Notes under the pieces: model-generated
Told to the model about the DNA's origin: nothing
Seen by the model: the letters and a program-made list of their open reading frames with translations, nothing else
The model's database searches: none
Position numbers and translations under genes: made by a program
Part shown: one piece after another, positions 4,854 through 35,768 of the stretch
How positions within the stretch are numbered: the first letter of the stretch is position 1
Layout: every line of letters starts with the position of its first letter
Origin: an uncultured Pseudomonadota bacterium
Lineage (GTDB): Bacteria > UBA10199 > JADFYH01
DNA: 36,929 bases
Direction of reading: 5' to 3'
NCBI GenBank assembly: GCA_964457215.1
Contig: CAYWGE010000001.1
Span: 1-36,929 of the forward strand

Positions 4854-5008
4854 TAAATCAGAGTTGTGAATTTTTATTTTTCAAAGTGCCTGAGCGATCC
4901 TTAAAACATCGCCATCTAATAAAATCCGCTTCAGCGGCTTGTACCGTTGTTGGATGGCGATTCAAAACTGCGAGTTTTTGAAAAATAAAAATTCACAACT
5001 CTGATTTA
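4854..5008. repeat. Perfect 32-bp inverted repeat (4854-4885 / 4977-5008) enclosing a 91-nt core that has its own nested stems
   Basis: TAAATCAGAGTTGTGAATTTTTATTTTTCAAA and its exact reverse complement were read directly from the sequence. Inner complementary pairs are ATCGCCATC (4908-4916) with GATGGCGAT (4953-4961), and CCGC (4926-4929) with GCGG (4934-4937). The element fills the mraY-murD spacer. Confidence 0.85.
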
Positions 5009-6132: not shown

Positions 6133-7518
6133 TCACACAGCCCCAAATTTTCCTTTAATTTTTTCTGTCACCTTTTCCATTTGAGCGCCACGCGAACCTT
6201 TTATCAACAAATATTGCGCTAAAGGGGTCCATTCCATAATTTTTCCAAGGACTTCATCTTGAGAGGTCGCTGCCACACCATGCAAAGCAGGCATCCCACC
6301 CTCTAAAGCCCCTTTCAAAACATCTTGGGCATAGGGACCCACCGCAATCAAAAATCCAATTTTATTTTTTGCAACCGATTGCCCGACCTGCCGGTGACCT
6401 TCGGAAACAAAATCCCCCAACTCTTTCATCTCACCCAATATCGCTAAACCGGGAGCTTTGCCTTTTAAACTGGCTAAAGTTTCTAAAGCTAAATCCATTG
6501 AAGAAGGGTTGGCATTATAACAATCATTCAAAATCACAATCTGATTTTTAAGCAGAATTTTTTCCATTCTCAGGGCTCGAGCCTGAAAAGTCTGTAGGCC
6601 TTTTTGAATTTCTTTGGCCTCCAAGCCCAAACCAAACCCTGCAGCAACCGCCGCCAAAACATTGCGCACCGCTGTTTTACCTAAAGCTGGGCAAGTAAAC
6701 GAATAAGCTTTCCCCAAATAACTCACCTCAAGCTCCACCCCTTTTTCGGTTAAACGAAATGCCGTGCAAGAAACATTCGCAGGGTTTTCGAGTCCAAAAG
6801 TAAAACGAAAGGCTCGGCTGGTCATTTTACAGAGATAAGGATCATCGATATTCACGAGCGCCAACGCCCCTGAAGGAAGCTTTTCGAATAATTCCCCTTC
6901 GGCACGCGCAACGCCTTCTAGATCTTTTAATTTTTCAAGGTGCTCAAACCCAATATTCGTAATCAAACCCGCCGTAGGCTCTGCAATTTCGGTGAGCCGG
7001 GCGAGCTCTCCAAAATCATTCATCCCCATTTCGATGACGGCAGCTTCGTGATTTTCTAATTTGAGCAGCATTTTAGGAACCCCAATTAAATTATTGAGGT
7101 TTCCTTCAGTCACTAAGGTTTTATAACGAGCACCCAAAACGAGGCCCGTCATATCTTTCGTAGTAGTTTTTCCGTTGCTTCCCGCGATTGCCAAAAGAGG
7201 AATTTTAAATTTTCTGCGCCAGGCATTCGCAATATCTCCGTAAGCTTTTAAAGTATCGGTAACTTCAATTAACGCGATCGACGCCGGGATATTTCCGGCC
7301 CAATGTGCTTTTTGAACAATAATTGCCAAAGGTTTTTTTGAAGTGAGCTCTTCAATAAAGCGATGCCCATCAAATTTTTCTCCAATTAAACATAAAAAAG
7401 CTTCTCCCGCTTGAAATGTGCGACTATCGGTCGAAATAGAGCGAACTATTTCATGAGAATTACCTTGAATGAGTTGCCCACGGCTTGCTTCTAAAATTTC
7501 TTGAATACTGAGTTTCAA
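6133..7518 (-). CDS. murF: UDP-N-acetylmuramoyl-tripeptide--D-alanyl-D-alanine ligase MurF
   Basis: It has the Mur ligase P-loop (GSNGKTTTKDM). It lies between murE and mraY, with a 4-nt overlap with murE. Confidence 0.9.
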   Translation of the reverse strand: MKLSIQEILEASRGQLIQGNSHEIVRSISTDSRTFQAGEAFLCLIGEKFDGHRFIEELTSKKPLAIIVQKAHWAGNIPASIALIEVTDTLKAYGDIANAWRRKFKIPLLAIAGSNGKTTTKDMTGLVLGARYKTLVTEGNLNNLIGVPKMLLKLENHEAAVIEMGMNDFGELARLTEIAEPTAGLITNIGFEHLEKLKDLEGVARAEGELFEKLPSGALALVNIDDPYLCKMTSRAFRFTFGLENPANVSCTAFRLTEKGVELEVSYLGKAYSFTCPALGKTAVRNVLAAVAAGFGLGLEAKEIQKGLQTFQARALRMEKILLKNQIVILNDCYNANPSSMDLALETLASLKGKAPGLAILGEMKELGDFVSEGHRQVGQSVAKNKIGFLIAVGPYAQDVLKGALEGGMPALHGVAATSQDEVLGKIMEWTPLAQYLLIKGSRGAQMEKVTEKIKGKFGAV

Positions 7519-9015: not shown

Positions 9016-11076
9016 TCAGGAGGGCGGCTTGAAGGAAAGTTTTACCTCAGAGCCCCTCTTGACCCATTGTCCAGCGGGTGGATCTTGCGACACGCAAACA
9101 CCGGAGCCTTCGACCGTGACTTTTAAGTCTTCAGCTTCCCATTCTTTCAAAACCGTGCGCAAGGCTTTTCCATCACAATCGGGCAAGCGCACGTTGCCTT
9201 CAGAGTACTGAATGGGGATCGTTTCCTCAACCGAGCTCATTTCAAGCTCATTCTTTTCTGGAAGACTGGGCATGTTTGAATGATTTAATTTCTTCGCTTT
9301 CTGCGCTTGAGTTTCTGGAGTTTTTTGATCTTGCTTGGTCAAAATGGTAGGCCCTTTAGTGTAAAGAGGTTTGACTCCCATGTAAGGAAGAACTTGGCGA
9401 ACGATCTCACGGAAAGCGGGTGCAGCTACCACTCCGCCAAAATGACTTCCTTGCGGTTCATTAATCGAAACCAGAACAACAATACGAGGATCATCGGCCG
9501 GCGCGATCCCCGCAAAACTTCCAATGTATCCACTTTGAGAATAGCCTTTTTTACCCTCCACCACTTTTTGAGCGGTTCCCGTTTTTCCTGCCGTGCCATA
9601 TTCTTCGACTTGGGCAGCAGTTCCAGTTCCCCCCGGCCCTACCACTGCTTTCAACATTTCAACTAATTTTCTCGCATTGGCTTTTTGCATCACCTGACGC
9701 ACGATTTTGGGTTCATTATTCACAATGATTTTGCCATTTCCATCCTCTACCCTTTTTACAATGAAGGGCTTCATTAAATATCCTCCATTGGCAATGGCAG
9801 AATAGGCAGTGACAATTTGAATGGGAGTGACGGAAATTCCTTGACCGAAAGCGATGGTACTCATTTGCAAGGTCCCCCAATTGTGCGAAGGAGCCATAAT
9901 TCCTCGAGCCTCTCCCGGTAAATCGATGCCGGTTTTTGTCCCAAAGCCAAACGCCTCGACCGCTTTCGCAAAGGCATCTCGACCAATATACTGCGCAATT
10001 TTGAGGGAACCAATATTACTCGAAACTCGAATAATTTCCGGCAGAGTCATGGCGCCATATTTTCCATGGTCATTGATAGTAAATTTATCAATGCGGTAGG
10101 CACCACCCTCACAATTAAATTTTTGATCAAGACTGACTTTTCCACTTTCAAGAGCAGCCGCCGCGGTAATGGCTTTAAAAATACTTCCTGGTTCAAAACT
10201 ATCGGTAACCGCTCTGTTCTTTGAATATTGCGCATCAAAACTAGAGTATTGATTTGGATCAAAATCAGGATAAGAAGCCATGGCTAAGACTTCGCCGGTC
10301 TTATCATTCATTACTACTGCAATCCCACTTTTTGCCTTCGCTTGCGTCACTGCTTTCGCAAGTTCTTTTTCAGTAATGAACTGAATAGTCTTATCGAGCG
10401 TTAAAATAACTTCATGAAGACTTTCTTTTTCACCCAATAAATCCGGATTATAAGTGCGCCCATGGGCATCTTGGTCTACTATTACCGGCTGCCCACCTGA
10501 TTTAAGATAGGAATCATAAAAAAGCTCTAAACCACCCAATGCGACGGAATCCAACCCAACAGCGCCTAAGATCGTGGCCGCTAATTTTTTATTTGGATAA
10601 AATCTTTTATATTCCTTCACTAATCCCAGATGTTCTTGCTTTAGGCTTTGAACCTTTTGAGATTCTTCATCGGAAATTCGGCGTTTAATCCAAACGAATT
10701 TTTTGTCTTTACTAAAAAGTTTAGAAATTTTTTCTGCATCCATTCCTAAGATCGAAGCAAGTTGACTCGCTAAGGTAGGGGATTCTTGGAGAGCGCTGGG
10801 ATTGGCATAAAGAGAATCGACCTTAATATCCATAGCCAACTCTTCTCCATGCGTATCTAAAATATTTCCGCGCTTAGGCGCTAAAGTCACTTTTTTCTGA
10901 TATTGAGCGCCGGCCAAACGATCAAGTTTATTATTATCTGCCAAGTGGAGCATGAAAGTGCGCCCCATAATCACAGTAAAAAATAGAAAATAGGCGAGTG
11001 CAATTAATAAAATGCGACGTTTAACACGACGTTCCGAAAAAAATCGGGAAGCAACTCGAGGAGGAGTGGGTTTCAT
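9016..11076 (-). CDS. ftsI: Division transpeptidase FtsI/PBP3 (class B PBP) with a C-terminal low-complexity linker and a PASTA-like domain
   Basis: It has an N-terminal TM anchor, the transpeptidase motifs SIFK (SxxK), SSN and KTGT, and a C-terminal ~58 aa resembling PASTA (LPDCDGKALRTVLKEWEAEDLKVTVEGSGVCVSQDPPAGQWVKRGSEVKL). Confidence 0.9.
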   Translation of the reverse strand: MKPTPPRVASRFFSERRVKRRILLIALAYFLFFTVIMGRTFMLHLADNNKLDRLAGAQYQKKVTLAPKRGNILDTHGEELAMDIKVDSLYANPSALQESPTLASQLASILGMDAEKISKLFSKDKKFVWIKRRISDEESQKVQSLKQEHLGLVKEYKRFYPNKKLAATILGAVGLDSVALGGLELFYDSYLKSGGQPVIVDQDAHGRTYNPDLLGEKESLHEVILTLDKTIQFITEKELAKAVTQAKAKSGIAVVMNDKTGEVLAMASYPDFDPNQYSSFDAQYSKNRAVTDSFEPGSIFKAITAAAALESGKVSLDQKFNCEGGAYRIDKFTINDHGKYGAMTLPEIIRVSSNIGSLKIAQYIGRDAFAKAVEAFGFGTKTGIDLPGEARGIMAPSHNWGTLQMSTIAFGQGISVTPIQIVTAYSAIANGGYLMKPFIVKRVEDGNGKIIVNNEPKIVRQVMQKANARKLVEMLKAVVGPGGTGTAAQVEEYGTAGKTGTAQKVVEGKKGYSQSGYIGSFAGIAPADDPRIVVLVSINEPQGSHFGGVVAAPAFREIVRQVLPYMGVKPLYTKGPTILTKQDQKTPETQAQKAKKLNHSNMPSLPEKNELEMSSVEETIPIQYSEGNVRLPDCDGKALRTVLKEWEAEDLKVTVEGSGVCVSQDPPAGQWVKRGSEVKLSFKPPS

Positions 11077-16490: not shown

Positions 16491-17609
16491 ATGCTTTCTT
16501 CTCAAACACTGCTTAAATTTTTCTCTTTTTTTATTTTTTTAATCCTTTTCTACCTTCCCTTTCACGCCCAAGCACAAACTTACAAAGTAGGAGTGGGAGA
16601 CGAGAACCGATTTGTCATGCGTAATGACGATGGTTCTTACACTGGCTTTGAGATTGAATTGTGGAAGGAAATCGCCAAGCAACTCAATATTCAATATGAA
16701 TTTCAAGATGTGAAACTTTTTCCAATGCTTTTAGAAGATTTAAAAACAGACAAAGTCGATTTCGGACTTTGGATGATGACGATTGATCGTGCGCGTTCCG
16801 AATATGTTCGATTTACCTACCCTTATTTTGTTTCGAGCCTTGCCATTTTAACGCCCGCAAAAGGGCACACGTTTGGAATACTCATTCGCCCAATTTTTAA
16901 ACCCATGGTGTTACGACTCATCTTAACGATTTTTATCATCATGTTCATTTTTGGAAATGTTTTGTGGGTCACTGAGCAAGGCCCTAACTCCATTATTTCA
17001 AAAAAATATTTCCCCGGAATCTTTCAGGCCATGTGGTGCACTTTTGCGATTCAAAGTACGATTGGCTTTGGTGATATCATCCCTAGGCGCTGGATTGCCC
17101 GCCTTCTCTCCATTCCTATTTGGATTTGCGGACTTTTACTCGTGGCCGTGATAACCGCTCAACTCTTAACCAATTATACAAGCGAGATCTATCATTCCCC
17201 CATTCGGGATTATCGGGATTTAAGCGGGAAAGTGGTGGCAAGTGTGGCGGGAACAAGTGCCGTCGAAACCATTGATACTTTAGGAGTCAAAAAATTGATT
17301 ACGGTGCCCCACGAAAATGATCTAGAAGCACTCTATCCTCGTCTAGAGAGCGGCGAAATTGATGCAATCGTGTTTGATTATACCTATCTCTTTGATCTGA
17401 AGGACACTCTTAAAAAGAAAGGCAAAAATCCATTTTTGGTTTCCGATCGCTTTCACCAACAATTCTACGCAATCGCCATGAACAAAAAATTGGCGGATGC
17501 CAACCCTGAACTTTTTGAAAAAATTAATTTGAAGATTTTAGAACTCAGCGACAACGGTTTTATCCATCAGCTTCATTTGAAGTGGTTTGGGAATCTAGAC
17601 ATTCAATAA
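16491..17609 (+). CDS. GluR0-like ligand-gated potassium channel: a periplasmic substrate-binding domain split by a 2-TM K+ channel pore
   Basis: It has a signal peptide, then an SBP lobe (YKVGVGDENRFVMRNDDGSYTGFEIELWKEIA..). This is followed by TM1, a pore helix and filter TIGFGD (17058-17075), TM2, and a second SBP lobe (..KVVASVAGTSAVETI..IDAIVFDY..). Confidence 0.75.
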   Translation: MLSSQTLLKFFSFFIFLILFYLPFHAQAQTYKVGVGDENRFVMRNDDGSYTGFEIELWKEIAKQLNIQYEFQDVKLFPMLLEDLKTDKVDFGLWMMTIDRARSEYVRFTYPYFVSSLAILTPAKGHTFGILIRPIFKPMVLRLILTIFIIMFIFGNVLWVTEQGPNSIISKKYFPGIFQAMWCTFAIQSTIGFGDIIPRRWIARLLSIPIWICGLLLVAVITAQLLTNYTSEIYHSPIRDYRDLSGKVVASVAGTSAVETIDTLGVKKLITVPHENDLEALYPRLESGEIDAIVFDYTYLFDLKDTLKKKGKNPFLVSDRFHQQFYAIAMNKKLADANPELFEKINLKILELSDNGFIHQLHLKWFGNLDIQ

Positions 17610-23045: not shown

Positions 23046-24026
23046 CTACAAATTTGTATACACACCCTTTAATAAATCTTCTGCCTTTGGCATTGGCTGA
23101 CTAGCGGCCCAAGTCGTTGCTTCGTTCATTTCTTTTTTTAACTTTTCGACTAATTTTTTTTCTTTCTCATCATTCCAAATTTTCATTTTTTCGAGACGCG
23201 CCCGCATCACGCTTAAAGGATCTTTCTTTTTCCAAAAATCTTTTTCGTCCTGAGGAATATAATTTGCGGGGTCATGCGTGCCATGTCCAGCGGCCCGGAA
23301 ACTTTTACATTCAATTAAGGTGGGCCCTCCTCCCTGACGCGCTTTATCCACGGCAGGTTTTACAGCTTCATAAACCGCAACCACATCATTACCGTCACAC
23401 ACTTTCCCATCAAAACCATAAGCTTTTGCGCGATCTGCTAAATTTTCAACCGCACTTTGTTCCCTAACCGGAGTCGAAATAGCCCAACCATTGTTATTCA
23501 GTACAAAAACAACAGGGAGTTTAAAAATCGCTGCATAGTTCATAGCCTCATGCACGCAACCTTGACTCGATGCTCCGTCTCCAAACAAAGCCATGACAAT
23601 TGATTTTTCTTTTTTATAGCGCGCGGCCCACGCCAAGCCATTCGCCACCACCAAATTTGCCCCCATGTGACTGACAAATCCTAAAATATTTTTTTTCTCA
23701 TAAGAAAAATGGATATTGGAATCTCTGCCTTGAGTCATTCCTGTTGCACGGTTAAAATATTGCGCAAAAATTTCGGCAGGAGAAACGCCGCGGATCAAAT
23801 GGAGCCCCATATCACGATGGGAAGGTGCTACCCAATCTTCGGGTTTAAGGGTTAAAGCAGCTCCTACAGAAATTGCCTCTTGACCTGTGGAGAGATAACC
23901 TTTTCCGATAATGAGGGGGCGTTCCGGATTTTGACTGTGATAAAGATAGGCAATCTGATCTTCCAAAGCACGGGTGCGATGGAGAGCATTATACATCTCG
24001 AGCAGCGTGCCTGCGTCGAGTACCAT
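23046..24026 (-). CDS. 2-oxoacid dehydrogenase E1 component, alpha subunit (TPP-dependent). The sequence does not decide among pyruvate, branched-chain and acetoin specificity
   Basis: It has the TPP-binding motif GDGASSQG...NNNGWAIS. Its size and its order ahead of E1-beta and E2 also fit. Confidence 0.88.
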   Translation of the reverse strand: MVLDAGTLLEMYNALHRTRALEDQIAYLYHSQNPERPLIIGKGYLSTGQEAISVGAALTLKPEDWVAPSHRDMGLHLIRGVSPAEIFAQYFNRATGMTQGRDSNIHFSYEKKNILGFVSHMGANLVVANGLAWAARYKKEKSIVMALFGDGASSQGCVHEAMNYAAIFKLPVVFVLNNNGWAISTPVREQSAVENLADRAKAYGFDGKVCDGNDVVAVYEAVKPAVDKARQGGGPTLIECKSFRAAGHGTHDPANYIPQDEKDFWKKKDPLSVMRARLEKMKIWNDEKEKKLVEKLKKEMNEATTWAASQPMPKAEDLLKGVYTNL

Positions 24027-24119
24027 GGTTTCCGACTCCTATTTCTGGTTTTTGCTCGCCTCTGACGGACTAACACCGCTTCCGCGTCCATGCCCTAGGG
24101 TATGCCCGGACTTGGTCAT
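24027..24119 (-). promoter_or_regulatory. Structured GC-rich 5' leader of the E1alpha operon: a single copy of the module that is repeated at 34230-34560
   Basis: The minus strand reads ATGACCAAGTCCGGGCATACCCTAGGGCATGGACGCGGAAGCGGTG...AAACCAGAAATAGGAGTCGGAAACC-ATG. It aligns with 34423-34563 at both module and tail level. The extended -10 TGTTAGAAT (24134-24126) lies just upstream. Confidence 0.6.
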
Positions 24120-24363
24120 GCACTTATTCTAACAAAAACAGTCGATTTGATTAAAGAAATATAAAAAAAGTTCTGCAAATTAATGATTTGCTTCCCTCAT
24201 TTAATTAGTTTATCTTTTTAGCCCTAAAATAGAGTTATTTCGAAGTTTTACCCTTACCTTAAGGGATTTAAAGCTGGGTCTCCTTCTATTATAGCTAACC
24301 ATATGAAAGAAGGCATTGCCTGGAAAATCTTATAAACTATTAAAATTAAAGGTTTTTCAGACA

Positions 24364-28051: not shown

Positions 28052-31000
28052 TTGGTAAAACAAATTCGTCGAAAAATCCTAACCTTCCTCTTTTTATTCT
28101 TGGGAATCGGAAGTTTCTTAGGTGCTTTTTATTGGAGCACTCATTCCCAAAAGGGCTTTGTGCTGACCTGGGGAACGCTTGTGCGCCTTATCCCCGGAAA
28201 ATTAGAATGGGAAAGAATTGATCTCAATCTCTCGGCGGGAAATATTCGAATAAAAAATTTGCGTTATACGCTTCCTCAAGGGATTTTTTTGCTCAAGCTC
28301 AATGAGCTCAATGCAACCTTAGCTAAAACCTCTCTCTTTCGAACTCGCCTTCTTCTGGAAAATATTAAAATCAGCAATCTCATGCTCGATTTAAGCAAAC
28401 TTCCTCCTCAAAAAAAGAAAGATCAAATGCCACCTTTATTGCGGGCATTGAGTCGTCGCTTAGAAATTAAATCCGGTATTTTAGAAAATACCGAAGTTTT
28501 TCTCAAGAATGGGCATCTTTCTATTCCTACTATTGAAGTGAAGTACAAACCCACTCTATTGGAGAAAAATTTTCTCCAATTTGCGTTAAATCAGGTACAA
28601 GGCGACATCAATGCCCACTCCTTTTCAGTTCAAAAAATTTATTATGACGGAACTTTTTCTGTGCCGGACTTAATGAAAGAGGCTCTGCTGTTTCGTCAGA
28701 CTCAAGGTAAATTGGGTATTCAAGGAGCGGAATTTGGGACATTTCGCCTCTCCGATCTCCAGACTCAAGCCCGATTCGAAGGCGAAACCCTTATTTTTGA
28801 TCATGTTGCTCTAACCTTTGGCAAAACACCTCTTCTGCTCAACCTCACTTTTGCCCCCTTTAATCAACATGCGGAAGGAAAACTTTCTACACCTGGATGG
28901 GTAGAGTTTGAAGATATTCCAGGCTTTGGTGACAAGCTTGTTCGTCTCTATGATAAAATTTCTTTTGATCTCGATTTTGATATCACAGGGTTTCTCTTTA
29001 AAGAAATGGAAGGAAAATTGGCTCTTTCTCTCCATACTCAAGGAAATCAGGTGAATCCTAAAACTCCCACTCTCGATTTAAAACTTGCCTCGACTATTCA
29101 CAAAGGGAAATTCGAATTTAAAGATTTTACTGCTCATAGTGAACGATCGGATCTCGCCATTAAAGGATTCGTCGATCTTGCGGAAATGAAATTGGGGGTG
29201 GATGTTAATACCACTGGGTTTGACATTAAAACTTTAGTCACTTCCTTTTCGGAACAAGACATCCAAGGATACGCCGACGCCGTGGGAAAAATTACGGGTC
29301 CTTTGAAACAACCTGATTTGCGTTTTCAGGGAAAAGCCGTGGAAAGTGGTTATAAATTCATGCGTTTTGGAGAAAATGGCGGAGACTTTGAAATTGTGAA
29401 TGGACGTTTGCGCTACTCCGGCAAATCCCCCGAAGGAGACGACACGGTCGAGATCGTAGTGGATGACATCTTTAATGCTCAACGTCGTCATTTAAAATTA
29501 AAAACCGATTTCAATCAAATTGACGTTTCGACTTTGCTCGAGAATCCAGGAATGAAAGGAAAAGTGAGCGGGCACTACGAAATGGACAGTTTTCAATTAC
29601 GAAAATCCGGAAAACTTACCGCGAACGTCAAAGATTTTTCACTTTATCAATTCCACCTGGGCGACGTGGAGGCCGAAGGTAATTTAAATAATAATGATTT
29701 CTCTTTTCCTCTCATTACTTTCCAACCTCCTAATTATGAAAAGATAAAAATTCCTCGTGAAGCGCTGATTCATTTTGACGATGGGGGCTTTAAGTATAAA
29801 GGGAGCCTCATTGAAGGAATGGAGATCGAAGGCGCCTTAGCTTATGCTCAGAAAAATCTCCTCAAAACTTCTGCAACTTGTCACGAATGTTCTATTGCCC
29901 CTCTTTTAGCCGCCCTGGAATTTCCACCTTTAGCAGGTAAAGTGGATGGTAAAATTACAATGGAGTTGTGGATTGGAAATTTTGAAAATTCTCGCATGGA
30001 CGCAAACATCACTGCCCTAGAAGTTCCTGTAGGAGAATCCGGGATTCTTCGCCAAGCTTCCCCTCTTAAAATTACTTATCATCAAGGAGCTTTTCATTTA
30101 GATGATGTGAATATTGCATTAGGAGAAGGACGAACGACAATAAAAGGAACGTATGCCTCGGATAAACCTTTTAATCTCGAAGTATTGGGTAAACTCGATT
30201 TAAGTTTACTCCAAGCCTTCAAAGCTCAAATTCGAGAGGCATCCGGACCGGCTGATGTAAATCTTAAAATCCGCGGTACTGCTCAGAATCCAGAAATAAA
30301 TGGAAAGGTTGTTTTTGAAGGAGCCTCTCTTAACCCTCGCTTCTTAGGAAATGCTGTAGAAAATTTAAAAGGGACTTTAATCATCGAAGATAAAAAGATT
30401 TCTGCGGAAGATTTATCAGGTACCGTAGCAGAAGGAGATATTCACCTCTCTGGAAGCCTCTGGCATGAACAATTCAAAATCAATAAAGCCGATATTAAGG
30501 CCGATTTACGCGAAGTCGCTTTGAGCCAGCCTGGTGCCTATACTTTATATCTTTCCGGGAAAGTAAATCTTACAGGACAAAATCCCAACCTACTTTTGGC
30601 CGGCAATTTAGATATTACCGAAGGTCAATACACAAAGAATTTTGAGGTGAAAGATTTTATTGCAAAACCAAGCGCCACCGGAGTGGAAGGCGAAAAAGAT
30701 CAGACTTTTGAGAACCTGAAACTCGATTTAAAAATTCGAAGTCCCGGAGAACTCCAAGTTAAAAACAATGTCGCTACGATTGATCTAAAAAGTGATTTAA
30801 AAATTACAGGAACTAAATCTAAACCCATTGTCACAGGAGCTATTGAAGTATTGGACGGAAAATTTCATTACTTTCGCCTTAATTTCGAAAATGCAAAAGG
30901 CGTGATTGATTTTAGAGATCCTAACAAACCTTACCCCTATGTGAGCATTACGGCAGATAAAGCCTTTGATCGACCCACTGAGAGTGTTTTGGTCAATCTT

Positions 31001-31441
31001 CTTGTTGAAGGTTATACCGATAATTTACAGCTCTCTTTTAATTCAAATCCTCCCCTCGAGAAACAAGAAATCTTGGCCCTTGTTTTCACCGGAGCACTTC
31101 CCAATGAGCAAAAAAACATTCCCGGTGCGAATATTGCAAGCACTGTTATTGCGAGCCAACTCACGAGCGTCTTAGCGGGTCCTCTGAACGATTTTGCTCA
31201 TTTAGATATTTTCCGCTTAGAAGCCTCAGATCCGGATTCTCAAAGTCTCACTTCGTTAGTGGTCGGAAAACAAATCGGAGATCGACTTTCTTTAGAATTC
31301 AAAACAGATCTCGCAGTTCAACAAGCGGTCAGTGCTGTTCAAGCGGAATATCTTATTTTTGATAATTTTCTCCTCAAAGCCTCTCGCACGTCTTCAGCAC
31401 AATATCGACTCGAAGCGACTTTGCGATTTAAGGAATATTAA
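28052..31441 (+). CDS. tamB: TamB-like translocation and assembly module protein (DUF490/AsmA-like, inner-membrane anchored)
   Basis: This 1129-aa protein has an N-terminal TM anchor (ILTFLFLFLGIGSFLGAFYW) and a long beta-rich repetitive body. It lies immediately upstream of an Omp85 gene. It uses a TTG start with AGGGG 6 nt upstream. Confidence 0.7.
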   Translation: MVKQIRRKILTFLFLFLGIGSFLGAFYWSTHSQKGFVLTWGTLVRLIPGKLEWERIDLNLSAGNIRIKNLRYTLPQGIFLLKLNELNATLAKTSLFRTRLLLENIKISNLMLDLSKLPPQKKKDQMPPLLRALSRRLEIKSGILENTEVFLKNGHLSIPTIEVKYKPTLLEKNFLQFALNQVQGDINAHSFSVQKIYYDGTFSVPDLMKEALLFRQTQGKLGIQGAEFGTFRLSDLQTQARFEGETLIFDHVALTFGKTPLLLNLTFAPFNQHAEGKLSTPGWVEFEDIPGFGDKLVRLYDKISFDLDFDITGFLFKEMEGKLALSLHTQGNQVNPKTPTLDLKLASTIHKGKFEFKDFTAHSERSDLAIKGFVDLAEMKLGVDVNTTGFDIKTLVTSFSEQDIQGYADAVGKITGPLKQPDLRFQGKAVESGYKFMRFGENGGDFEIVNGRLRYSGKSPEGDDTVEIVVDDIFNAQRRHLKLKTDFNQIDVSTLLENPGMKGKVSGHYEMDSFQLRKSGKLTANVKDFSLYQFHLGDVEAEGNLNNNDFSFPLITFQPPNYEKIKIPREALIHFDDGGFKYKGSLIEGMEIEGALAYAQKNLLKTSATCHECSIAPLLAALEFPPLAGKVDGKITMELWIGNFENSRMDANITALEVPVGESGILRQASPLKITYHQGAFHLDDVNIALGEGRTTIKGTYASDKPFNLEVLGKLDLSLLQAFKAQIREASGPADVNLKIRGTAQNPEINGKVVFEGASLNPRFLGNAVENLKGTLIIEDKKISAEDLSGTVAEGDIHLSGSLWHEQFKINKADIKADLREVALSQPGAYTLYLSGKVNLTGQNPNLLLAGNLDITEGQYTKNFEVKDFIAKPSATGVEGEKDQTFENLKLDLKIRSPGELQVKNNVATIDLKSDLKITGTKSKPIVTGAIEVLDGKFHYFRLNFENAKGVIDFRDPNKPYPYVSITADKAFDRPTESVLVNLLVEGYTDNLQLSFNSNPPLEKQEILALVFTGALPNEQKNIPGANIASTVIASQLTSVLAGPLNDFAHLDIFRLEASDPDSQSLTSLVVGKQIGDRLSLEFKTDLAVQQAVSAVQAEYLIFDNFLLKASRTSSAQYRLEATLRFKEY

Positions 31442-31444
31442 AAG

Positions 31445-34231
31445 ATGGAGAAAGCACTCTTAAACCGTGAAACATTTCTTGCAGCGCCTCTGTCGCATGT
31501 GGCGAAACCGTTTTCTGTTGCATGCTTCATACTAACCATTTTTTTTATTCTTTCTTTTTTTAGCTCTTCGGCAAAGGCAGCAAAAATAAACCCTAATTCT
31601 AGTCCTGAAATTATCAACCAAATCGAAATTCACAATCAACTACCCAAAAAAATTCCGGATATCGAAGCAGTAATGCGTTTAAAAGTAGGGGATGTTTTTG
31701 ATCAATCGAAACTTGAAAATGCCATTGAAGATTTACGAAAATGGGGGGTTTTTAAAAATGTAGAAGTTTTGGTGAGACACGAGGGAAATAAAGTAGATTT
31801 AGATTTTCAACTTGAAGACGCCTACCTCATCAAAGATGTCGAAATTCATGGGAACTTTCCTCTATTAGAAAAAAAAATTAAACGCGCCATTTTTCTTTCG
31901 CCAGGGGATATTTACGATAGAACACGTATTCCAGAACAAGTTGATCGCCTCCTCTCCTTTTACGAAAAAGCTGGCTACAAAGGCACAGTCATTTTCATTG
32001 AAGAGAATTTAGACGAGCAAAATCATGTGGCGACTTTAGAAATTCATATCCAAAAAGGAAAAGATTATCGTGTGGGTGAAGTAGAGGTAAAAGGAAATAC
32101 AATCTTTAAAGATAGTCGAATCGCAAATAAAGTAAGCCGTGTTTTTGGTTACAGCCCGGATCGCCTTAAACAAGATATAAAAAACATTCAATCGCTCTAT
32201 CGTGATGAAGATTATCCCCGAGCCCGAGTCAAAATAGTCGACACAGAATTTGACGAACAAAAACGCAAAGTAAATTTTACTTTGGAAATTCGAGAAGGCA
32301 AACAAATCGATGTTTTATTTGAGGGGAACAAACACCAATGGAGTAAAAATCTTAAAAAAGTAGTGGATATCCCTAAGAATGGAGACACCGATGATATTGA
32401 ACTTGAACGCGCTAAAACCCAACTGATTCAACACTATAATAGTTTAGGCTACGACGAAGTAACCGTAAGCTATAAAAAACAAAAAGTAGGCGATAAAAAA
32501 ATCGTAGTTACTTTTTTTATTCAAGAAGGCCCCAAGCACACCATTAAATCGATTGATTTTGAGGGTAATAAAAACATTTCGGCAAAAAAATTACGCGAAC
32601 AAATGCAGACGCAAGAAGAGTCCTTTGAAAATCCAGCGAGCGTGTTCCTAGAAAACGTTTTTAAACAAGATTTAGAAACCATCACATCTTTTTACGAAAA
32701 AAATGGTTTTCTCGAGGCCAAAGTAGCCGATTGGAAGAAATCGCTCAATGCGACACAAGATAAATACCTCATCAATATTCAGATCAAAGAAGACAAACAA
32801 ACCTTTGTAGAATTTATAAAATTTCAAGGGCTCAAAGCTTTTAAAGAAAGTGAAATTCGAAAATTTTTATTGGTAAAAGAAAATCAACCCTATGAAACTC
32901 CAAAGCTTGAACAAGATGTAAAAGCTATTCTAATTTATTATGCAAACCATGGTTACCCCTATGCTCAAGTCAAAACCGATCTTTCTCATCCGAGTAGTGA
33001 AAAAGTAGGGGTTACTTATCAGATTGAAGAAGGCCCTTCTGCTAAAATTGGCAAAATTTTAATCGTCGGAAATTTACTTACAAAGCGCTCCGCTATTTTA
33101 AATGCACTGCGGTTCAAAGAAGGAAGCGTTTTTAATCCTCAAAAAATTTTAGAGAGTCAAACCTCGTTACGAAAATTAGGCATCTTTGATTCTCTCACTC
33201 TTGAAACTCTGGGCTTGAAAGGACAAGAATCGGTTGTTCATGTCGTTGTGCGAGTGGAAGAAAAGAAACCTGTCGAAATTGATCTAGGTTTTTCTTACGA
33301 CACTGATACCAGCTTTAAAGCGAAAATGGCTTATACCCGCCGCAATCTTTTCGGGATGGGAAAGCAATTCAACTTAAATCTTACGGGCGGCCCTCTATAC
33401 GACCGAGCGGAAGTCGACTTCACCGACCCTCGTTTTTTTGGCACAGACTGGAAACATCTCGACAGTGTATATGCCATGTATGAGAGTCGTACTTTCTTTA
33501 CAGATGTTCAACTCGGCGGCTCCGTCGGACTCTTTCGAGAACTTACTCGTCATCTTTCAATGGTCATTCGTTACGATTTAATTCGAACCGATTTTCTCGA
33601 AGAAAAAACCGATTTCTCGGAACTTCGACCCGGCACTCAAGACAACACGACAGGTAAATTAGAATATTCCGTCACATATGATCGGAGAGATAATTTTGGC
33701 GACCCACATTCCGGCTTTTACACGGTAGGACGTGTTGATTTTGGAACGCAGTTTGAAGGACTCGATGCTCATTTTTTCGAAACCGGTGCGAGCTTTGGAT
33801 ATTGGTGGTCCCCCTCGCCTATCTCGCGATTTACAATTTCAAATAGCCTTCGTTTCGCAACCGTTTTTCCTTTCTCGAAGGGAGTGAATATTCCCACTCA
33901 AGAACTTATTTTCATGGGAGGTGATGATACTGTCCGAGGATTTAGACAAGACGGCTTAAATCCTGCGGGAGGAAAAGTGGGAATTATTTACAATCTTGAA
34001 TTCATTATTCGTCTCTTCAAAGGATTTCAACTCGCAGGCTTCTTAGACAGTGGCAGCGATACCAATACGTTTGGAGAGATTGGTCCTTCTTCTTTCAGGC
34101 ACGCCGCAGGCCCCAGCATTCGTTATGCCACCCCCGTGGGACCCCTTCGAGTCGATTACGGCATTGTACTCGACCCTCAAGCTGGGGAAGATACCCAGCG
34201 TCTTCACATCAGCTTCGGCTACTTTTTCTGA
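31445..34231 (+). CDS. bamA: Omp85-family outer-membrane protein assembly factor (BamA/TamA-like, multiple POTRA repeats plus a beta-barrel)
   Basis: It has repeated POTRA-like units (IKSIDFEGNKNISAKKLREQM, IEFIKFQGLKAFKESEIRKFL, IGKILIVGNLLTKRSAILNAL). The C-terminal barrel ends in ...HISFGYFF, an aromatic beta-signal. Confidence 0.85.
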   Translation: MEKALLNRETFLAAPLSHVAKPFSVACFILTIFFILSFFSSSAKAAKINPNSSPEIINQIEIHNQLPKKIPDIEAVMRLKVGDVFDQSKLENAIEDLRKWGVFKNVEVLVRHEGNKVDLDFQLEDAYLIKDVEIHGNFPLLEKKIKRAIFLSPGDIYDRTRIPEQVDRLLSFYEKAGYKGTVIFIEENLDEQNHVATLEIHIQKGKDYRVGEVEVKGNTIFKDSRIANKVSRVFGYSPDRLKQDIKNIQSLYRDEDYPRARVKIVDTEFDEQKRKVNFTLEIREGKQIDVLFEGNKHQWSKNLKKVVDIPKNGDTDDIELERAKTQLIQHYNSLGYDEVTVSYKKQKVGDKKIVVTFFIQEGPKHTIKSIDFEGNKNISAKKLREQMQTQEESFENPASVFLENVFKQDLETITSFYEKNGFLEAKVADWKKSLNATQDKYLINIQIKEDKQTFVEFIKFQGLKAFKESEIRKFLLVKENQPYETPKLEQDVKAILIYYANHGYPYAQVKTDLSHPSSEKVGVTYQIEEGPSAKIGKILIVGNLLTKRSAILNALRFKEGSVFNPQKILESQTSLRKLGIFDSLTLETLGLKGQESVVHVVVRVEEKKPVEIDLGFSYDTDTSFKAKMAYTRRNLFGMGKQFNLNLTGGPLYDRAEVDFTDPRFFGTDWKHLDSVYAMYESRTFFTDVQLGGSVGLFRELTRHLSMVIRYDLIRTDFLEEKTDFSELRPGTQDNTTGKLEYSVTYDRRDNFGDPHSGFYTVGRVDFGTQFEGLDAHFFETGASFGYWWSPSPISRFTISNSLRFATVFPFSKGVNIPTQELIFMGGDDTVRGFRQDGLNPAGGKVGIIYNLEFIIRLFKGFQLAGFLDSGSDTNTFGEIGPSSFRHAAGPSIRYATPVGPLRVDYGIVLDPQAGEDTQRLHISFGYFF

Positions 34232-34560
34232 CCGAAGCCGGGTACACACTTCAAGTGGGTGGCTGAGGGAATGGTTGAAGACGGAGTCGTAAACCATGAC
34301 CGAGACATTGTGTATACCCGAACTCTTATCCCATACACCGTCCTCGCATATGGCTAAGGAAAGCCTTAAAAATCATAACTCATTGCCAGACTCCTTATTT
34401 TTCAGTTACAATGTGGATTCGTATGACCGAAACCGGGTATACCCTTCGGGCATGGCCGAGGAAATGGTTGCGACCGAATCCGGGTGCCCCGAAAGCTTTC
34501 GGGGCGGATGAGGAAGTGGTTGTAGCCGAAGGCGGAAACCAGAAACGAGAGTTGGAAACC
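34230..34560 (+). repeat. Tandem array of about 4 GC-rich structured modules plus a conserved tail that ends at a start codon
   Basis: The modules lie at 34230-34295, 34296-34365 (degenerate), 34423-34471 and 34472-34530. Their consensus is GACCGAA-NNCC-GGGYA-[hairpin]-GGN'N'-GAGGAARTGGTTG. The six-frame ORFs here overlap one another with no consistent frame. Confidence 0.7.
34383..34412 (+). promoter_or_regulatory. Candidate sigma70-type promoter inside the module array
   Basis: TTGCCA (34383-34388), an 18-nt spacer, then TACAAT (34407-34412). This lies 10 nt upstream of the ATGACCGAA that opens module M2. The arrangement parallels the -10 element upstream of ATGACC at the E1alpha locus. 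Confidence 0.4.
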
Positions 34561-35292
34561 ATGCAAAATTTCTTAAGAAAACTAATCCAGCCTTTAGGAA
34601 AAAGTGTTGAAAAAGTAGGGGGTTGGGTAGAAAAACGCCGAAGTAAAAAACTGAGTACTCCTACTGCGCAAGAAGGAATGAAACTTCCCCCCGAGTATAC
34701 CCTTCATGCTCTAATGCAATATTTAGAAGAACGAGAAATTCGTTCGTTAATTCCAAACCTTGCAGGTAAAAAGACACTCTGCGCATCCTGGGGTGAAAAC
34801 ACCCTTTGCAATTTACTTCGCGAAAAAAAGGCCTCTCCTTTATTAATGATGGCCCCCCAAGCCGAAGAACTGGGAGAAATTTCAGAAACTACTTCTGAAC
34901 AATTTGGATTGGTAGGAAGCTTAAAAGCCGCTCCTTTTAAAAATGATTTTTTTGACTGCTCCATTATCAGCGCTTGGAATGGTAAAAACGATCTTTCCAC
35001 TTGGGTAGGAGAACTTACTCGGATTAGCCGAGATGGTTCTAGAATGGTTTTGGTATTTACTCATCCCTATCTTCAATATCTCTCCAAAACAGTTCGAAAA
35101 ATTCCTCAAGGCCTCTCACAAAATTTTATGACTCTCCGGAGAGCCGGAATTTATGTAGAAGAAATTAAAGAAGCTTTTGTGGATGAATCTGCAAAAGAAG
35201 CTCTTTCAAATATTCCCTCGACCTCGATTGAGAATTTAAAAGGCCTGCCTCTTTTAGTTTTATTCAAAGCAATCCGCCTCAAAAGGAAATAG
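34561..35292 (+). CDS. Hypothetical protein with a class-I methyltransferase-like fold and a degenerate SAM-binding motif
   Basis: I set the start at the ATG of the conserved GGAAACC-ATG junction. Methyltransferase-like blocks are present (..KKTLCASWGEN.., FDCSIISAWNG, ELTRISRDGSRMVLVF) but there is no GxGxG motif. Confidence 0.5.
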   Translation: MQNFLRKLIQPLGKSVEKVGGWVEKRRSKKLSTPTAQEGMKLPPEYTLHALMQYLEEREIRSLIPNLAGKKTLCASWGENTLCNLLREKKASPLLMMAPQAEELGEISETTSEQFGLVGSLKAAPFKNDFFDCSIISAWNGKNDLSTWVGELTRISRDGSRMVLVFTHPYLQYLSKTVRKIPQGLSQNFMTLRRAGIYVEEIKEAFVDESAKEALSNIPSTSIENLKGLPLLVLFKAIRLKRK

Positions 35293-35294
35293 AC

Positions 35295-35768
35295 ATGCAA
35301 AAAACCTTAAGCCCAGAAGATAAATTAAAAGAACTTAAATTATACCTCACAGAACCTGCAACTCCTGAAGGAAGCTATGTGCCTGCTGTCAAAACGGGTT
35401 CCCTGCTGTTTATTAGCGGTCAACTTCCTAAAATAGGCCCTCAACTCACTTTTAAAGGAAGGTTAGGAAAAGAAGTTTCTCTCGATAATGGGCAACGTGC
35501 TGCAAAACAAGCGCTAGCAAATGCTTTGGCGGTGGTTAAAAAAGAATTAGGCTCTTTAGATAAAGTAAAAAAAATAGTGCGGATGACGGGGTTCGTGAAT
35601 AGTTACCCAGGATTTACAGATCAGGCTAAAGTAATGGACGCCGCAAGTGAAATTCTAGGACAGATATTCGGAGAAAACGGAAAACACAGCCGAGTATCCG
35701 TAGGAGTCACCGACCTCCCTTTAAACTCCCCTATTGAACTTGATTTAATTGTAGAGGTTAAACCTTAA
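35295..35768 (+). CDS. RidA/YjgF/Rut-family reactive-intermediate deaminase-like protein
   Basis: This 157-aa protein has the YjgF-fold pattern (..LLFISGQLP....VKKIVRMTGFVNS....RVSVGVTDLPLNSPIELDLIVE). It starts 2 nt after the upstream gene. Confidence 0.75.
   Translation: MQKTLSPEDKLKELKLYLTEPATPEGSYVPAVKTGSLLFISGQLPKIGPQLTFKGRLGKEVSLDNGQRAAKQALANALAVVKKELGSLDKVKKIVRMTGFVNSYPGFTDQAKVMDAASEILGQIFGENGKHSRVSVGVTDLPLNSPIELDLIVEVKP

Follow-up and report, generated by a model that had tools for sequence, protein, structure and literature searches.

A dispersed, probably mobile structured element at start codons and its decayed copy upstream of an E1alpha gene

Several families of short repeats and structured insertions are known with which the element described here can be compared. 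The REP, BIME and REPIN sequences are palindrome-associated elements derived from IS200/IS605 and are mobilised by Y1/HUH transposases; REPs are found chiefly 3' of genes, frequently in inverted pairs, with longer stems than those discussed below and with GTAG at the hairpin foot. The Correia elements of Neisseria carry terminal inverted repeats and a TA duplication, and the ERIC sequences of enterobacteria are long imperfect palindromes. Structured insertions in mRNA are also known from T4 gene 60 and from the mobile 'byp' insertions of Magnusiomyces mitochondria, in which the take-off and landing codons are identical. In Streptococcus pneumoniae, the BOX elements, like RUP and SPRITE, are small interspersed structured repeats, built in a modular fashion from boxA, boxB x n and boxC (PMC3049150). 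Nijveen, Matus-Garcia and van Passel described putative mobile promoters (PMPs), highly similar upstream regions found before non-homologous genes, in some cases across phyla (PMC3575422). Their definition covers positions -150 to -50, where promoter elements are presumed to lie, and most of them matched no Rfam family (PMC3575422). Additionally, the intergenic TAACTGA direct repeats of Beggiatoaceae are abundant and are proposed both to form a post-transcriptional network and to have been exchanged between distant lineages (PMC4679880).

The present analysis concerns a module of about 70 nt that is found as four or five units in the window, which is the whole analysed stretch of 36,929 nucleotides from an uncultured Pseudomonadota bacterium (GenBank assembly GCA_964457215.1, contig CAYWGE010000001.1). 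Full-text searching of the literature, including searches with the element's own sequence strings, found no description of the module, and the family, which is unusual, appears to be undescribed. Like BOX, it is a short multi-copy intergenic repeat with a variable number of units (one or two of U1 and one or two of U2), has a stable predicted fold when transcribed and no coding capacity, and the mobilisation route is undefined in both. However, no sequence or model similarity links the two, and BOX is confined to one genus and is not fused to start codons, whereas about 73% of the module copies end exactly at an AUG, and the module is present in MAGs labelled as several phyla. With PMPs it shares the occurrence of homologous sequence directly before unrelated genes, both inside one genome and across genomes, together with an undefined mechanism of movement; unlike PMPs, its conserved block extends from +1 to the AUG and the upstream -35 and -10 sequences are not conserved. 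The moving unit would be a 5' UTR/start-codon cassette, not a promoter. The TAACTGA repeats differ in being arrays of a 7-nt unit that is not known to have a conserved fold, whereas the module is a 70-nt covarying structure.

The remaining systems resemble the module in other respects. Broadly as in REP and IS200/IS605 elements, the hairpins are short and strand-specific, terminal inverted repeats are lacking, a conserved tetranucleotide seems to stand at the hairpin foot (GGAG or GTAG in the module), insertion would occur beside a short sequence without clear duplication, and tandem or mosaic arrays are formed; unlike REPs, the module points the same way as the downstream gene, whose start codon it abuts, and no RAYT/TnpA gene is linked to it in the loci covered. 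The Correia and ERIC elements are comparable in being transcribed intergenic repeats that affect the expression or stability of their neighbours and show presence/absence polymorphism between strains, although neither is positioned at start codons. Finally, the identical triplets at its two ends (AUG at nt 1-3 and at nt 69-71) recall the bypass elements, but Shine-Dalgarno-like motifs offer the module a simpler initiation route, some copies carry ACG, GCG or CUG at the 5' edge, and ribosome bypass is without support.

In the window, the module had been noticed upstream of two operons on opposite strands, one for a 2-oxoacid dehydrogenase and one for a methyltransferase-like protein and RidA, and a sequence-only reading regarded it as one leader shared by the two. 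At the first locus (copy A, 24027-24119, minus strand), the sequence had been given without error, with the E1alpha ATG directly after it at 24026-24024; the second locus was also described correctly, except that the head string quoted for it comprises 33 nt and ends at 34455 rather than 34450. Direct comparison of both loci confirmed that 14 of the last 17 positions are identical, and an independent repeat finder recovered the tails of copies A and B as a 28-nt match of 86% (I4). Within the window, GGAGTCGGAAACCATG with up to three mismatches occurs four times against 0.25 expected, a count that none of 100 shuffles reached, and the whole-unit pattern occurs four times against 0.00 expected. 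The similarity between the two leaders is real and far above chance, and at both operons one conserved module does reach the initiation codon. The leader is not private to them, however: the module is a generic repeat lying upstream and downstream of many unrelated genes, and at the start codons of many. Since the leader is a copy of a widespread repeat, it establishes no private regulatory link between the two operons.

Copy A occupies 93 nt between a -10 element and the E1alpha start codon (24024-24026; gene 23046-24026, minus strand; Pfam E1_dh, E = 1.3e-78) and is degenerate; that it is the most degenerate of the copies had been overlooked earlier. It scored 38.8 bits with model R1 under default filters and 29.4 bits with filters off (29-39 bits, against 82 for copy C and 71 for the inner module B2 of copy B). 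Its U1 hairpin unit (24078-24119, minus strand; AUGACC...GGAAGC) is supported by the R1 alignment and by the covariation of equivalent pairs, and pairing in the outer helix P1 is weakened, with A-C and U-G in place of stronger pairs. The first U2-like segment, GGUGUUAGUCCGUCAGAGGCGAGCAAAAACC (24047-24077, minus strand), is decayed, and R1 treats this stretch as an insertion, while the terminal U2-like segment, AGAAAUAGGAGUCGGAAACC (24027-24046, minus strand), aligns with the tail of copy B (I4). An AGGAG (24040-24036) situated 9 nt before the AUG provides a usable Shine-Dalgarno sequence, and the MFE fold of the copy is no more stable than those of shuffles (z = +0.76). Taken together with the family described below, the 93 nt before E1alpha are probably one decayed member of a set of dispersed repeats, each about 70 nt long.

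A switch between two mutually exclusive helices had been proposed for this copy, in which GGAC would pair either with an upstream or with a downstream GUCC. All three tetranucleotides are present at the positions given for them, and the upstream helix, GUCC (24111-24108) with GGAC (24089-24086), lies within U1 and is real: it corresponds to the base of the family helix P2 (model pairs 9-12 with 34-37), which covaries across 69 sequences. The switch itself is without comparative support because the downstream GUCC sits in the degenerate part of copy A, namely the decayed first U2-like segment at 24047-24077; the alternative helix is not conserved, and the family consensus at this place is GGUUGGAG. 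As for transcription, the extended -10-like sequence TGTTAGAAT (24126-24134, minus strand) does stand 6 nt before ATGACC; lacking a -35 match, it was not recognised as a full sigma-70 site in the promoter scan. Judged by consensus hexamers, a -10-like element lies just upstream of both window copies, so that ATGACC is plausibly at or near the 5' end of the RNA, as had been suggested.

The other copies lie on the plus strand between bamA and the methyltransferase-like/ridA operon. Copy C (34228-34298) is a complete single module consisting of U1 and U2 (R1 82.2 bits, E about 1e-17); its nt 2-4 (TGA, 34229-34231) are the stop codon of bamA, the in-frame ORF upstream having 929 codons, and its 3' end reads GUAAACC-AUG. 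A decayed head-to-tail copy, copy D (ATGACCGAGAC...CAUAUGGCUAAGGAAAGCC; 34296-34366, the end being approximate), was recognised by eye and gave no significant R1 match. A sigma-70-like promoter, TTGCCA-18-TACAAT (34383-34412), is found 10 nt before the ATGACC of copy B, which extends from 34423 to 34560 and is a nested double copy with two U1 and two U2 units. Its outer U1 (B1, AUGACC...GGAAAU GGUU; 34423-34469) was assigned by the unit pattern and an R1 score of 18.1 bits for U1 only, and its outer U2 unit, AGAAACGAGAGUUGGAAACC (34541-34560), by sequence and I4. Nested between them is a complete inner module (B2, GCGACC...GGAAGU GGUUGUAG-CCGAAGG-CGGAAACC; 34470-34540; R1 71.2 bits over 34470-34543), and the same architecture is seen in locus L027 when compared with L036. 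The true start codon of the methyltransferase-like gene (34561-35292) is located at 34561-34563, since the ortholog P0122, which has 244 aa against 243 aa in the window and carries no module, begins at the equivalent ATG; the ridA-like gene follows at 35295-35768. The third full copy at 34228-34298, the decayed fourth at about 34296-34366 and the internal duplication of the second copy had escaped the sequence-only reading.

In the sense strand, the module forms two directly abutting hairpins, U1 and U2, and the canonical element reads 5'-(A/G)UGACC-RAR-NCC-GGGU-(hairpin)-GGN'-YGM-GGRAAU, followed by GGUU-GGAG-(short GNA/GNRA hairpin)-GGAAACC-AUG. U1 (nt 1-45) contains two tandem internal loops of the G-A type and a GGGU bulge, U2 (nt 46-68) contains a symmetric GGA/GGA loop, and the fold sets nt 1 beside nt 68. 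Terminal inverted repeats, which a MITE (miniature inverted-repeat transposable element) would have, are absent, the head (A/G)TGACC and the tail GGAAACC(ATG) not being complementary and all helices being internal. Among 15 gap-free sequences, 99.1% of cells were paired and 10 pairs showed double-sided changes, values reached in none of 500 shuffles; among 69 distinct sequences, the paired cells amounted to 99.2%, with compensatory changes in 13 of 22 pairs, again beyond all of 500 shuffles, and against 32-49% paired in slid controls. In the latter set, pair 2-44 is UA in 49 sequences and CG in 20, with no exception, and pair 10-36 uses all four Watson-Crick types. Additionally, G-U/U-G pairs were counted 40 times and A-C/C-A only 3 times, which indicates folding of the sense strand. 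Of the 71 columns of the 15-sequence seed alignment, 38 are invariant; the invariant or near-invariant positions are G3, A4, A8, G13-G15, G38 and A43, as well as G50 and A52 in that seed alignment. A44 and U45 have two competing pairings, with the 5'-terminal AU, which covariation favours, or with the AU of the start codon, which is favoured thermodynamically.

The stems measure 3-7 bp, and GGAG precedes the U2 hairpin, with GTAG in a minority of copies. The U2 loop is GGA in only part of the family, the invariant GGAG stands 15 nt away from the AUG, and the Shine-Dalgarno role is not uniform across the family. A reading of the four GGA motifs of the module as CsrA-type sites was rejected because the loop and the motif at 62-64 vary, being GNA, GNRA, GUA or GAA in many copies. 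Likewise, the order of the conserved blocks does not fit integron attC sites (R''/R' cores), nor the hammerhead, twister, HDV-like and K-turn signatures, in agreement with the Rfam models. At gathering thresholds, Rfam 15 gave no match in the window, and at E values up to 5-10 it returned only chance matches for ten canonical copies, a 121-nt canonical copy and the stretch 34200-34600, these permissive matches being miRNA and snoRNA models on unrelated hairpins; a tRNA/tmRNA scan of the window found none. The module is a compact and very strongly covarying RNA structure, absent from Rfam, that stands at the initiation codons of housekeeping genes.

The spread of the family was assessed with a strict unit pattern that makes no requirement of the tail, in 39 metagenome loci and 72 genome loci, which contained about 24 and about 50 true copies, respectively, with 3-7 strict-pattern matches per MAG. 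Dozens of MAGs and metagenome contigs carry the module; they represent uncultured groundwater and sediment lineages labelled in public records as several phyla. Of 73 copies, 53 (about 73%) end in GGAAACC plus a start codon and an ORF, in the orientation of the gene. The genes that begin at the module end include those for GAPDH, SucC, GlyRS, L31, TatA and HisG, whose proteins, by eye, presumably start at their usual N-termini. Forty downstream proteins fell into 65 Pfam families, none of which was found in more than two members, and no transposase was identified among these 40 by Pfam. Copies within a MAG are more alike than copies from different MAGs (0.76 versus 0.70; 0 of 2000 permutations). 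In at least 10 copies, a long ORF upstream terminates in frame on the head TGA, and 37 of 43 copies have a pyrimidine at position -1. Many copies are preceded, at 6-13 nt, by recognisable -35/-10 pairs, with no conservation of sequence; in the 45 nt upstream of 43 copies, -10-like hexamers stand at variable distances, and neither a fixed-distance -10 box nor a conserved sequence was found. In distant genomes, the module precedes both an MtnA-like gene (45% identity) and a gene for a 270-aa protein of unassigned function (59%), which suggests that some copies may be old and retained. In a subset (JACPWU01, L099, L024 and L048), an outer stem encloses the module, no ATG adjoins it, and it can be antisense to the flanking ORFs; this subset suggests that the fold has a life independent of start codons.

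The most direct evidence on the origin of the window copies comes from relatives. The closest relative, with 81-87% protein identity and from the same metagenome, has none of them, and the R1 search detected no module copy in L004-L007, L119 and L122. In L004, where E1alpha is 87% identical and syntenic, the site reads TTTTTGTTACAAT-tggtct-ATGGTACTCGAC and the gene is leaderless, whereas the window has TTTTTGTTAGAAT-aagtgc, then the 93 nt, then the same N-terminus, ATGGTACTCGAC; the -10-like element is conserved in L004 as TGTTACAAT and stands there 6 nt before the ATG. L005 (84% identical) shows TAAGAT, 6 nt and ATG. At the other operon, L119 (ortholog 81% identical) has 52 nt from the bamA TGA to the methyltransferase-like ATG and the same promoter, conserved as TTGCAA...TACAAT; the stretch of copies C and D, which in the window comes directly after the bamA TGA, is absent from L119, and copy B lies directly before the ATG. 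As judged from these comparisons, the element was shown to have been added secondarily in this lineage, exactly at the E1alpha start codon, and likewise at the methyltransferase-like start codon and at the bamA stop codon. All three filled and empty sites are consistent with insertion directly 3' of TG. Two of the filled sites have ATG on both sides, and their empty sites have a single ATG; a target-site duplication is nevertheless ambiguous, because either flanking ATG could belong to the element, and heads with GTG, CTG, ACG or GCG combined with an ATG tail also exist, which argues against a simple duplication. In L027 and L036, the number of units differs at one locus, and the insertion is at GGTT^GGAG, not after ATG. 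The GAPDH site (L097 versus L121/L122, 71-74% protein identity) has unalignable intergenic regions, the relatives having ordinary Shine-Dalgarno leaders, and R1 did find a module before an HD-domain gene in L121, a contig of a relative. The family is multi-copy and dispersed, and its presence or absence and location vary between close relatives.

The likely explanation of these data is a structured repeat, dispersed and probably mobile, that enters at start codons and carries an AUG and a Shine-Dalgarno-like sequence of its own. The element, moving itself or copied by some other route, would insert directly beside an xTG triplet, either a start codon or an ATGA/GTGA start-stop overlap; the relic xTG would stay at the 5' edge, and a new AUG would be supplied at the 3' edge. 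A resident promoter would start transcription at, or a few nt from, AUGACC, and the pairing of the first nucleotides would shield the 5' end from 5'-end-dependent decay. The GGAG and GGA motifs may serve as Shine-Dalgarno contacts, with the AUG emerging at the foot of U2, and the alternative A44/U45 pairings could tune initiation. Possibly, the element persists where it has inserted by serving as a self-sufficient cassette for translation initiation. The U2 part of copy A would have decayed to an unstructured AGGAG-N9-AUG, and this copy now probably acts as an ordinary Shine-Dalgarno leader. No mobilising gene (transposase, reverse transcriptase or other) was found in the 8-21 kb covered per locus. 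It becomes testable what a single insertion does to a leaderless gene that is thereby turned into a leadered, Shine-Dalgarno-bearing one.

The conservation of the internal loops across the labelled phyla exceeds what passive insertion would need, which points to a specific partner or a tertiary fold; should a partner act on the fold in trans, the element would amount to regulatory wiring that spreads as a mobile cassette. Also weighed was a reading, unlikely on balance, in which the module is a global cis-acting functional RNA (a riboswitch-like sensor of a general signal, a platform binding one conserved protein, a thermosensor or a small ribozyme) exerting a common translational control wherever it lands, mobility being only its means of spread. 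RNAs that bind ligands or proteins typically show such very strong covariation together with invariant or nearly invariant loop and bulge nucleotides, the core is retained in MAGs labelled as different phyla and reappears in a second architecture, a three-way junction with an outer stem, and one of the two mutually exclusive A44/U45 pairings hides the start codon. Two gene families retain the module at 45-59% protein identity, yet its presence varies between relatives at 81-87%, so that no gene can have depended on it for long, and copy A decayed without loss of its gene. Moreover, the downstream genes have no functional theme, no Rfam riboswitch or ribozyme is similar even at E up to 10, and a ligand, protein or cleavage site is not inferable from the sequence.

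It is doubtful that the module combines both properties, as a functional RNA domain that moves horizontally and has start codons as its homing sites. Homing would bring it directly beside the initiator triplet, at leaderless AUGs at transcription starts and at ATGA/GTGA overlaps in operons, and the old triplet would be kept as the first three nt of the module and placed beside the new AUG by the fold. Were this true, all genes entered would come to share one structured initiation region with a single conserved reader: a protein, a small ligand or the ribosome itself, which might for example capture the 5' AUG and then pass to the AUG downstream. Housekeeping genes would in this way make up a 'mobile regulon'.

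A further explanation, considered improbable, regards the module as a non-autonomous HUH/Y1 ssDNA transposon, in the manner of IS200/IS605 derivatives or REP/REPIN elements, inserting 3' of a short target (xTG), whose hairpins would be recognition structures for a transposase encoded elsewhere and whose folding as RNA would be incidental. The three filled-versus-empty comparisons all fit insertion 3' of TG, but L027 versus L036 places an insertion at GGTT^GGAG, and if TG were the whole target, copies should be strewn over all intergenic TGs, in either orientation; the exact location of about 73% of copies at start codons, in gene orientation, therefore needs strong extra selection or other targeting. 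Whether a repeat comes to be placed so precisely at start codons by targeting or by selection becomes testable. The lack of terminal inverted repeats and of a clear duplication, as in IS200/IS605, the strand-specific folding, the head-to-tail and nested arrays, and the covariation of the flanking dinucleotide x1x2 with an internal 'guide-like' AU/GU at 44-45 agree with such a transposon, as does the GKAG directly before the U2 hairpin (GTAG in some copies), which resembles the REP signature. On the other hand, the hairpins are short (3-7 bp) in comparison with REP or IS608 ends, and no Y1 transposase was seen in any of the loci covered (about 8 kb per locus).

Against the dispersed element favoured here, a dedicated riboregulatory leader joining the 2-oxoacid dehydrogenase and methyltransferase/ridA operons in one regulon through a GUCC/GGAC switch is very improbable: both operons have the module up to the AUG, and so does a 986-aa 2-oxoacid dehydrogenase E1-type gene in L111, but no module stands before E1alpha in L004-L007 or before the methyltransferase-like gene in L119, both orthologous sites being empty in the closest relative, the genes preceded by the family are unrelated, number dozens and span 65 Pfam families, bamA is followed by a third copy, the alternative helix lacks conservation, and the degenerate copy A folds no better than shuffles. 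Shared leaders taken as evidence of co-regulation would mislead in such cases. Equally hard to credit is that the module is coding, as a leader peptide or an N-terminal extension from the 5' AUG; from 34423 the frame stays open and in phase through to 34561, and an RNA starting with AUG would suit leaderless initiation, but the reading was rejected because the frame is not conserved, the distances from the 5' AUG to the gene AUG falling in all three frames (e.g. 61, 62, 64, 66, 68, 69, 70, 79 and 91) and the two U1 units of copy B being 47 nt apart, while the variation tracks base pairing, not codons, and the module-free ortholog is full length at 244 aa. The element causes a systematic mis-annotation of start codons, as in the public call P0121, which begins at 34423, reads through the module and gives 289 aa for the methyltransferase-like protein of 243 aa; a second example is the JGI call for the HD-domain gene in L121, which also reads through the module.

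The leader of the E1alpha operon (order E1alpha, E1beta, E2, lipoyl synthase) occupies 24119-24027 on the minus strand, exactly as quoted in the sequence-only reading, with the ATG of the E1_dh-domain gene directly after it. The second locus, at 34423-34563, precedes the gene for a protein of 243 aa, remotely homologous to proteins named as SAM-dependent methyltransferases, and then a YjgF/RidA-family gene. The tails of the two leaders were identical at 24 of 28 positions (repeat match I4), and the reported agreement of their last 17 nt at 14 positions was reproduced. In the window, the tail 16-mer with up to three mismatches occurred four times against 0.25 expected, and a whole-hairpin-unit pattern four times against 0.00 expected; thus, the similarity of the leaders is real. 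The cause originally assigned to it, a single leader common to both operons, was wrong, since the leader was shown to be one of many dispersed copies of a structured element, the module, which is found at unrelated genes.

The two leaders are both present and represent only part of the module content of the window, as fuzzy searches and a covariance model of the module (R1) revealed further copies. Copy C (34228-34298) is complete, its nt 2-4 providing the TGA stop of bamA (31445-34231) and its 3' end reading GUAAACC-AUG, and a decayed copy follows it head-to-tail at about 34296-34366. Copy B, before the methyltransferase-like gene, is double: a complete inner module (B2, 34470-34540) is flanked by the outer hairpins, U1 at 34423-34469 and U2 at 34541-34560. 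The public call for this gene, 289 aa from the module AUG at 34423, is too long because it reads through the module; the true length is 243 aa. With the covariance model run with filters off, no further module was detected in the 36.9 kb window. Copy A, before E1alpha, was the weakest (29-39 bits versus 82 for C and 71 for B2), and its minimum-free-energy fold was no more stable than shuffles (z = +0.76). It carries AGGAG nine nt before the AUG, and it appears to have lost the U2 structure and to have become an ordinary Shine-Dalgarno leader.

A strict U1-unit pattern, free of any downstream requirement, was scanned over metagenome and genome collections, and about 75 module copies were left once GC-rich coding false positives had been removed. 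The carriers were unrelated metagenomes and MAGs labelled in public records as Elusimicrobia, 'Pseudomonadota'/Deltaproteobacteria, Chlamydiae, Omnitrophota and unclassified bacteria, with 3-7 strict-pattern matches per MAG and a higher similarity between copies within one MAG than between MAGs. At the 3' end of 53 of 73 copies, GGAAACC, a start codon and an ORF were found, the ORFs encoding, among others, GAPDH, SucC, GlyRS, aspartokinase, HisG, IlvD, NadE, MtnA, L31, TatA, LpxD-like proteins and antitoxins. Forty downstream proteins, which by eye start at their usual N-termini, matched 65 Pfam families, none of them in more than two, and no transposase was among these proteins. It was shown that the module is bound to no function of the downstream genes. 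The proposed 2-oxoacid/RidA regulon is not supported, as the element is generic and stands at many unrelated genes, the very outcome that the sequence-only reading had named as refuting it. At least 10 copies provide, with the TGA at module nt 2-4, the in-frame stop of a long ORF lying upstream, and thus occupy the whole stop-to-start gap. Additionally, a locus represented by two contigs (L027 and L036) has, in one of them, one whole module more, nested between its U1 and U2.

The canonical 71-nt form is AUGACC-AAG-UCC-GGGU-[ACCCnnn-loop-nnnGGGU]-GGA-CGC-GGAAAU / GGUU-GGA-[GAC-GGA-GUC]-GGA-AACC-AUG, where the slash marks the U1/U2 border. U1 comprises helix P1 (pairs 1-45, 2-44, 5-41 and 6-40), helix P2 (9-12 with 34-37) and a terminal hairpin (17-23 with 27-33), and U2 comprises P3 (GGUU with AACC) and P4, a 3-bp stem capped by a GNA or GNRA loop. 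In 15 gap-free sequences, which were not fitted to the model, 99.1% of cells were paired, with both-sided changes at 10 pairs; in 69 distinct sequences, aligned to the model and hence biased toward the structure, 99.2% were paired against 32-49% in slid controls, and 13 of 22 pairs showed both-sided changes. Pair 2-44 was U-A in 49 sequences and C-G in 20 without exception, and all four Watson-Crick combinations occur at 10-36. G-U pairs outnumbered A-C pairs by 40 to 3, indicating that the sense strand is the folding one. The non-Watson-Crick positions were fixed or covarying (G3-A43 and A8-G38 in 69/69 each, A4-A/G42, and G7-A39 or A7-C39), which suggests that U1 holds two loops of the tandem G-A type and U2 a symmetric GGA/GGA loop. 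The GUCC/GGAC helix of the earlier proposal corresponds to P2 of the family. Nothing in the family matches the alternative helix of the proposed switch, which lies where copy A has decayed. U1 and U2 are immediately adjacent. The GGAAAU-GGUU strand has AACC opposite it on one side and, on the other, the AUGACC of the 5' terminus; in head-to-tail copies this reads continuously as AACCAUGACC. In the thermodynamic optimum, AUGGUU (44-49) pairs with AACCAU (65-70), hiding the A and U of the start codon; this is mutually exclusive with the pairing of A44 and U45 with nt 2 and 1 indicated by covariation.

The window belongs to a contig of 179 kb in JGI metagenome 3300013121, where two longer contigs carry syntenic regions with E1alpha 87% and 84% identical. 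In the 87% relative, the E1alpha upstream region is alignable as far as the -10 element and then reads TGTTACAAT-tggtct-ATGGTACTCGAC, a leaderless arrangement, versus TGTTAGAAT-aagtgc-[93 nt]-ATGGTACTCGAC in the window; the 84% relative has TAAGAT, 6 nt and ATG. The methyltransferase-like ortholog (81% identical, 244 aa) lies in a relative where the bamA TGA-to-ATG gap is 52 nt, with a matching TTGCAA...TACAAT promoter, and the window has about 135 nt extra directly after the TGA and 138 nt extra directly before the ATG. By these alignments, the module was shown to be a secondary addition at these window loci, and what the comparison yields is three independent additions in the window lineage, each at a start or stop codon. 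A contig of this lineage (L121) also carries a module before an HD-domain gene, whose ortholog in a more distant metagenome contig (L122) has none. In both E1alpha relatives (L004 and L005, 9985-10003 in each), the start lies 6 nt past the -10 hexamer; in the relative's methyltransferase-like locus (L119, 5985-6003), it lies 10 nt past TACAAT, without a Shine-Dalgarno sequence. Several window genes have a TAnnnT-like hexamer 5-8 nt before the ATG, and leaderless or near-leaderless initiation may be widespread in this lineage. A more distant relative (L006 10975-11138, L007 5181-5360) has 163 nt between E1alpha and E1beta, which abut in the window; a 59-aa ORF is called there in one contig, and R1 found no module in this gap.

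Across 43 copies, the 45 nt before the module showed no common sequence, and position -1 was a pyrimidine in 37 of them. Many copies have a recognisable -35/-10 pair whose -10 ends 6-13 nt before AUGACC, a spacing that places the RNA 5' end probably at the module or a few nt before it. The promoter is a property of the host site, not of the element.

From these observations, the element probably spreads within and between genomes, with insertion beside an xTG triplet. It probably persists at start codons because it supplies a complete initiation region (paired 5' end, GGAG and GGA motifs, AUG), whereby a leaderless or overlapping start could become leadered while the gene is kept. The first three module nt would be a relic of the original start codon, with which GTG heads, mostly found in operon-internal copies, are in agreement; ACG or GCG heads occur with a compensating G44, so the head triplet also belongs to the fold. 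Loop and bulge nucleotides are invariant across very distant carriers, suggesting a partner or a tertiary fold, as expected if the module were a functional RNA. A minority of copies, in a Chlamydiae-labelled MAG (JACPWU01: L054 5941-6040, L057, L063, L065, L071, L074, L092) and in L099, L024 and L048, are enclosed by an outer stem around the core, which in the MAG, L099 and L024 measures 9-11 bp (CTCCCCTTA...TAAGGGGAG or TTAAGGGGGAG...CTCCCCCTTAA) and forms a three-way junction; the copies of this minority adjoin no ATG and can be antisense to neighbouring ORFs, as in L054. A TG target alone would predict mostly non-start intergenic sites, whereas copies stand precisely at start codons. This precision, the invariant loops and the outer-stem variant together keep both the functional-RNA and the single-stranded DNA transposon readings alive beside that of an element persisting as an initiation region.

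No Rfam 15 model matched the module, even at E up to 10, and no description of it was found in the openly accessible full-text literature, including searches with its own sequence strings. REP or IS200-type hairpin elements are among the nearest concepts. BOX, a family of modular structured repeats (PMC3049150), and the 'putative mobile promoters' (PMC3575422) are others. Within this kind of element, the module is made new by being fused exactly to the initiation codon, by having no terminal inverted repeats and by a covarying fold conserved across phyla as publicly labelled.

Other arrangements were also observed. In L079 5172-5419 (= L010, L025), a three-unit array fills the whole gap from a 395-aa ORF, whose stop TGA lies inside ATGACC, to a response-regulator gene starting at ATGACCGAG; two of the three units are a shorter U1 subtype (AUGACCGAAGCAUUCG-CGGU-CGAAUGCGAGGAAAUGGUUG) without the NCC-GGGU part, one of them with a ~60-nt insertion. 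In L121, public gene calls extend through the module or other upstream sequence (6578-6646 and 10001-10118): the call for the HD-domain gene begins at the AUG of the module, and that for GAPDH, at 374 aa, begins at an upstream ATG, although the usual start is marked by AAGGGG-N6-ATG. A 155-bp element at window 4854-5008, unrelated to the module, has perfect 32-bp terminal inverted repeats (TAAATCAGAGTTGTGAATTTTTATTTTTCAAA ... reverse complement) around 91 nt in the gap between genes 3477-4823 and 5015-6091, and resembles a MITE or else an unusually long hairpin. At L037 2240-2353 lies a nearly perfect long hairpin of 114 nt (~36 bp), probably a repeat of another sort or a terminator-like element; its MIR8562 match, on both strands, was spurious. 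The BamA homolog (31445-34231) has seven POTRA-domain matches, five being usual in Proteobacteria, and its gene directly follows a TamB-like gene (28052-31441), a pairing kept in all relatives fetched. Finally, precomputed Pfam matches assign SBP_bac_3 (periplasmic solute-binding) and Lig_chan and Ion_trans (ion-channel) domains to a 372-aa protein (16491-17609), a predicted prokaryotic glutamate-receptor-type channel.
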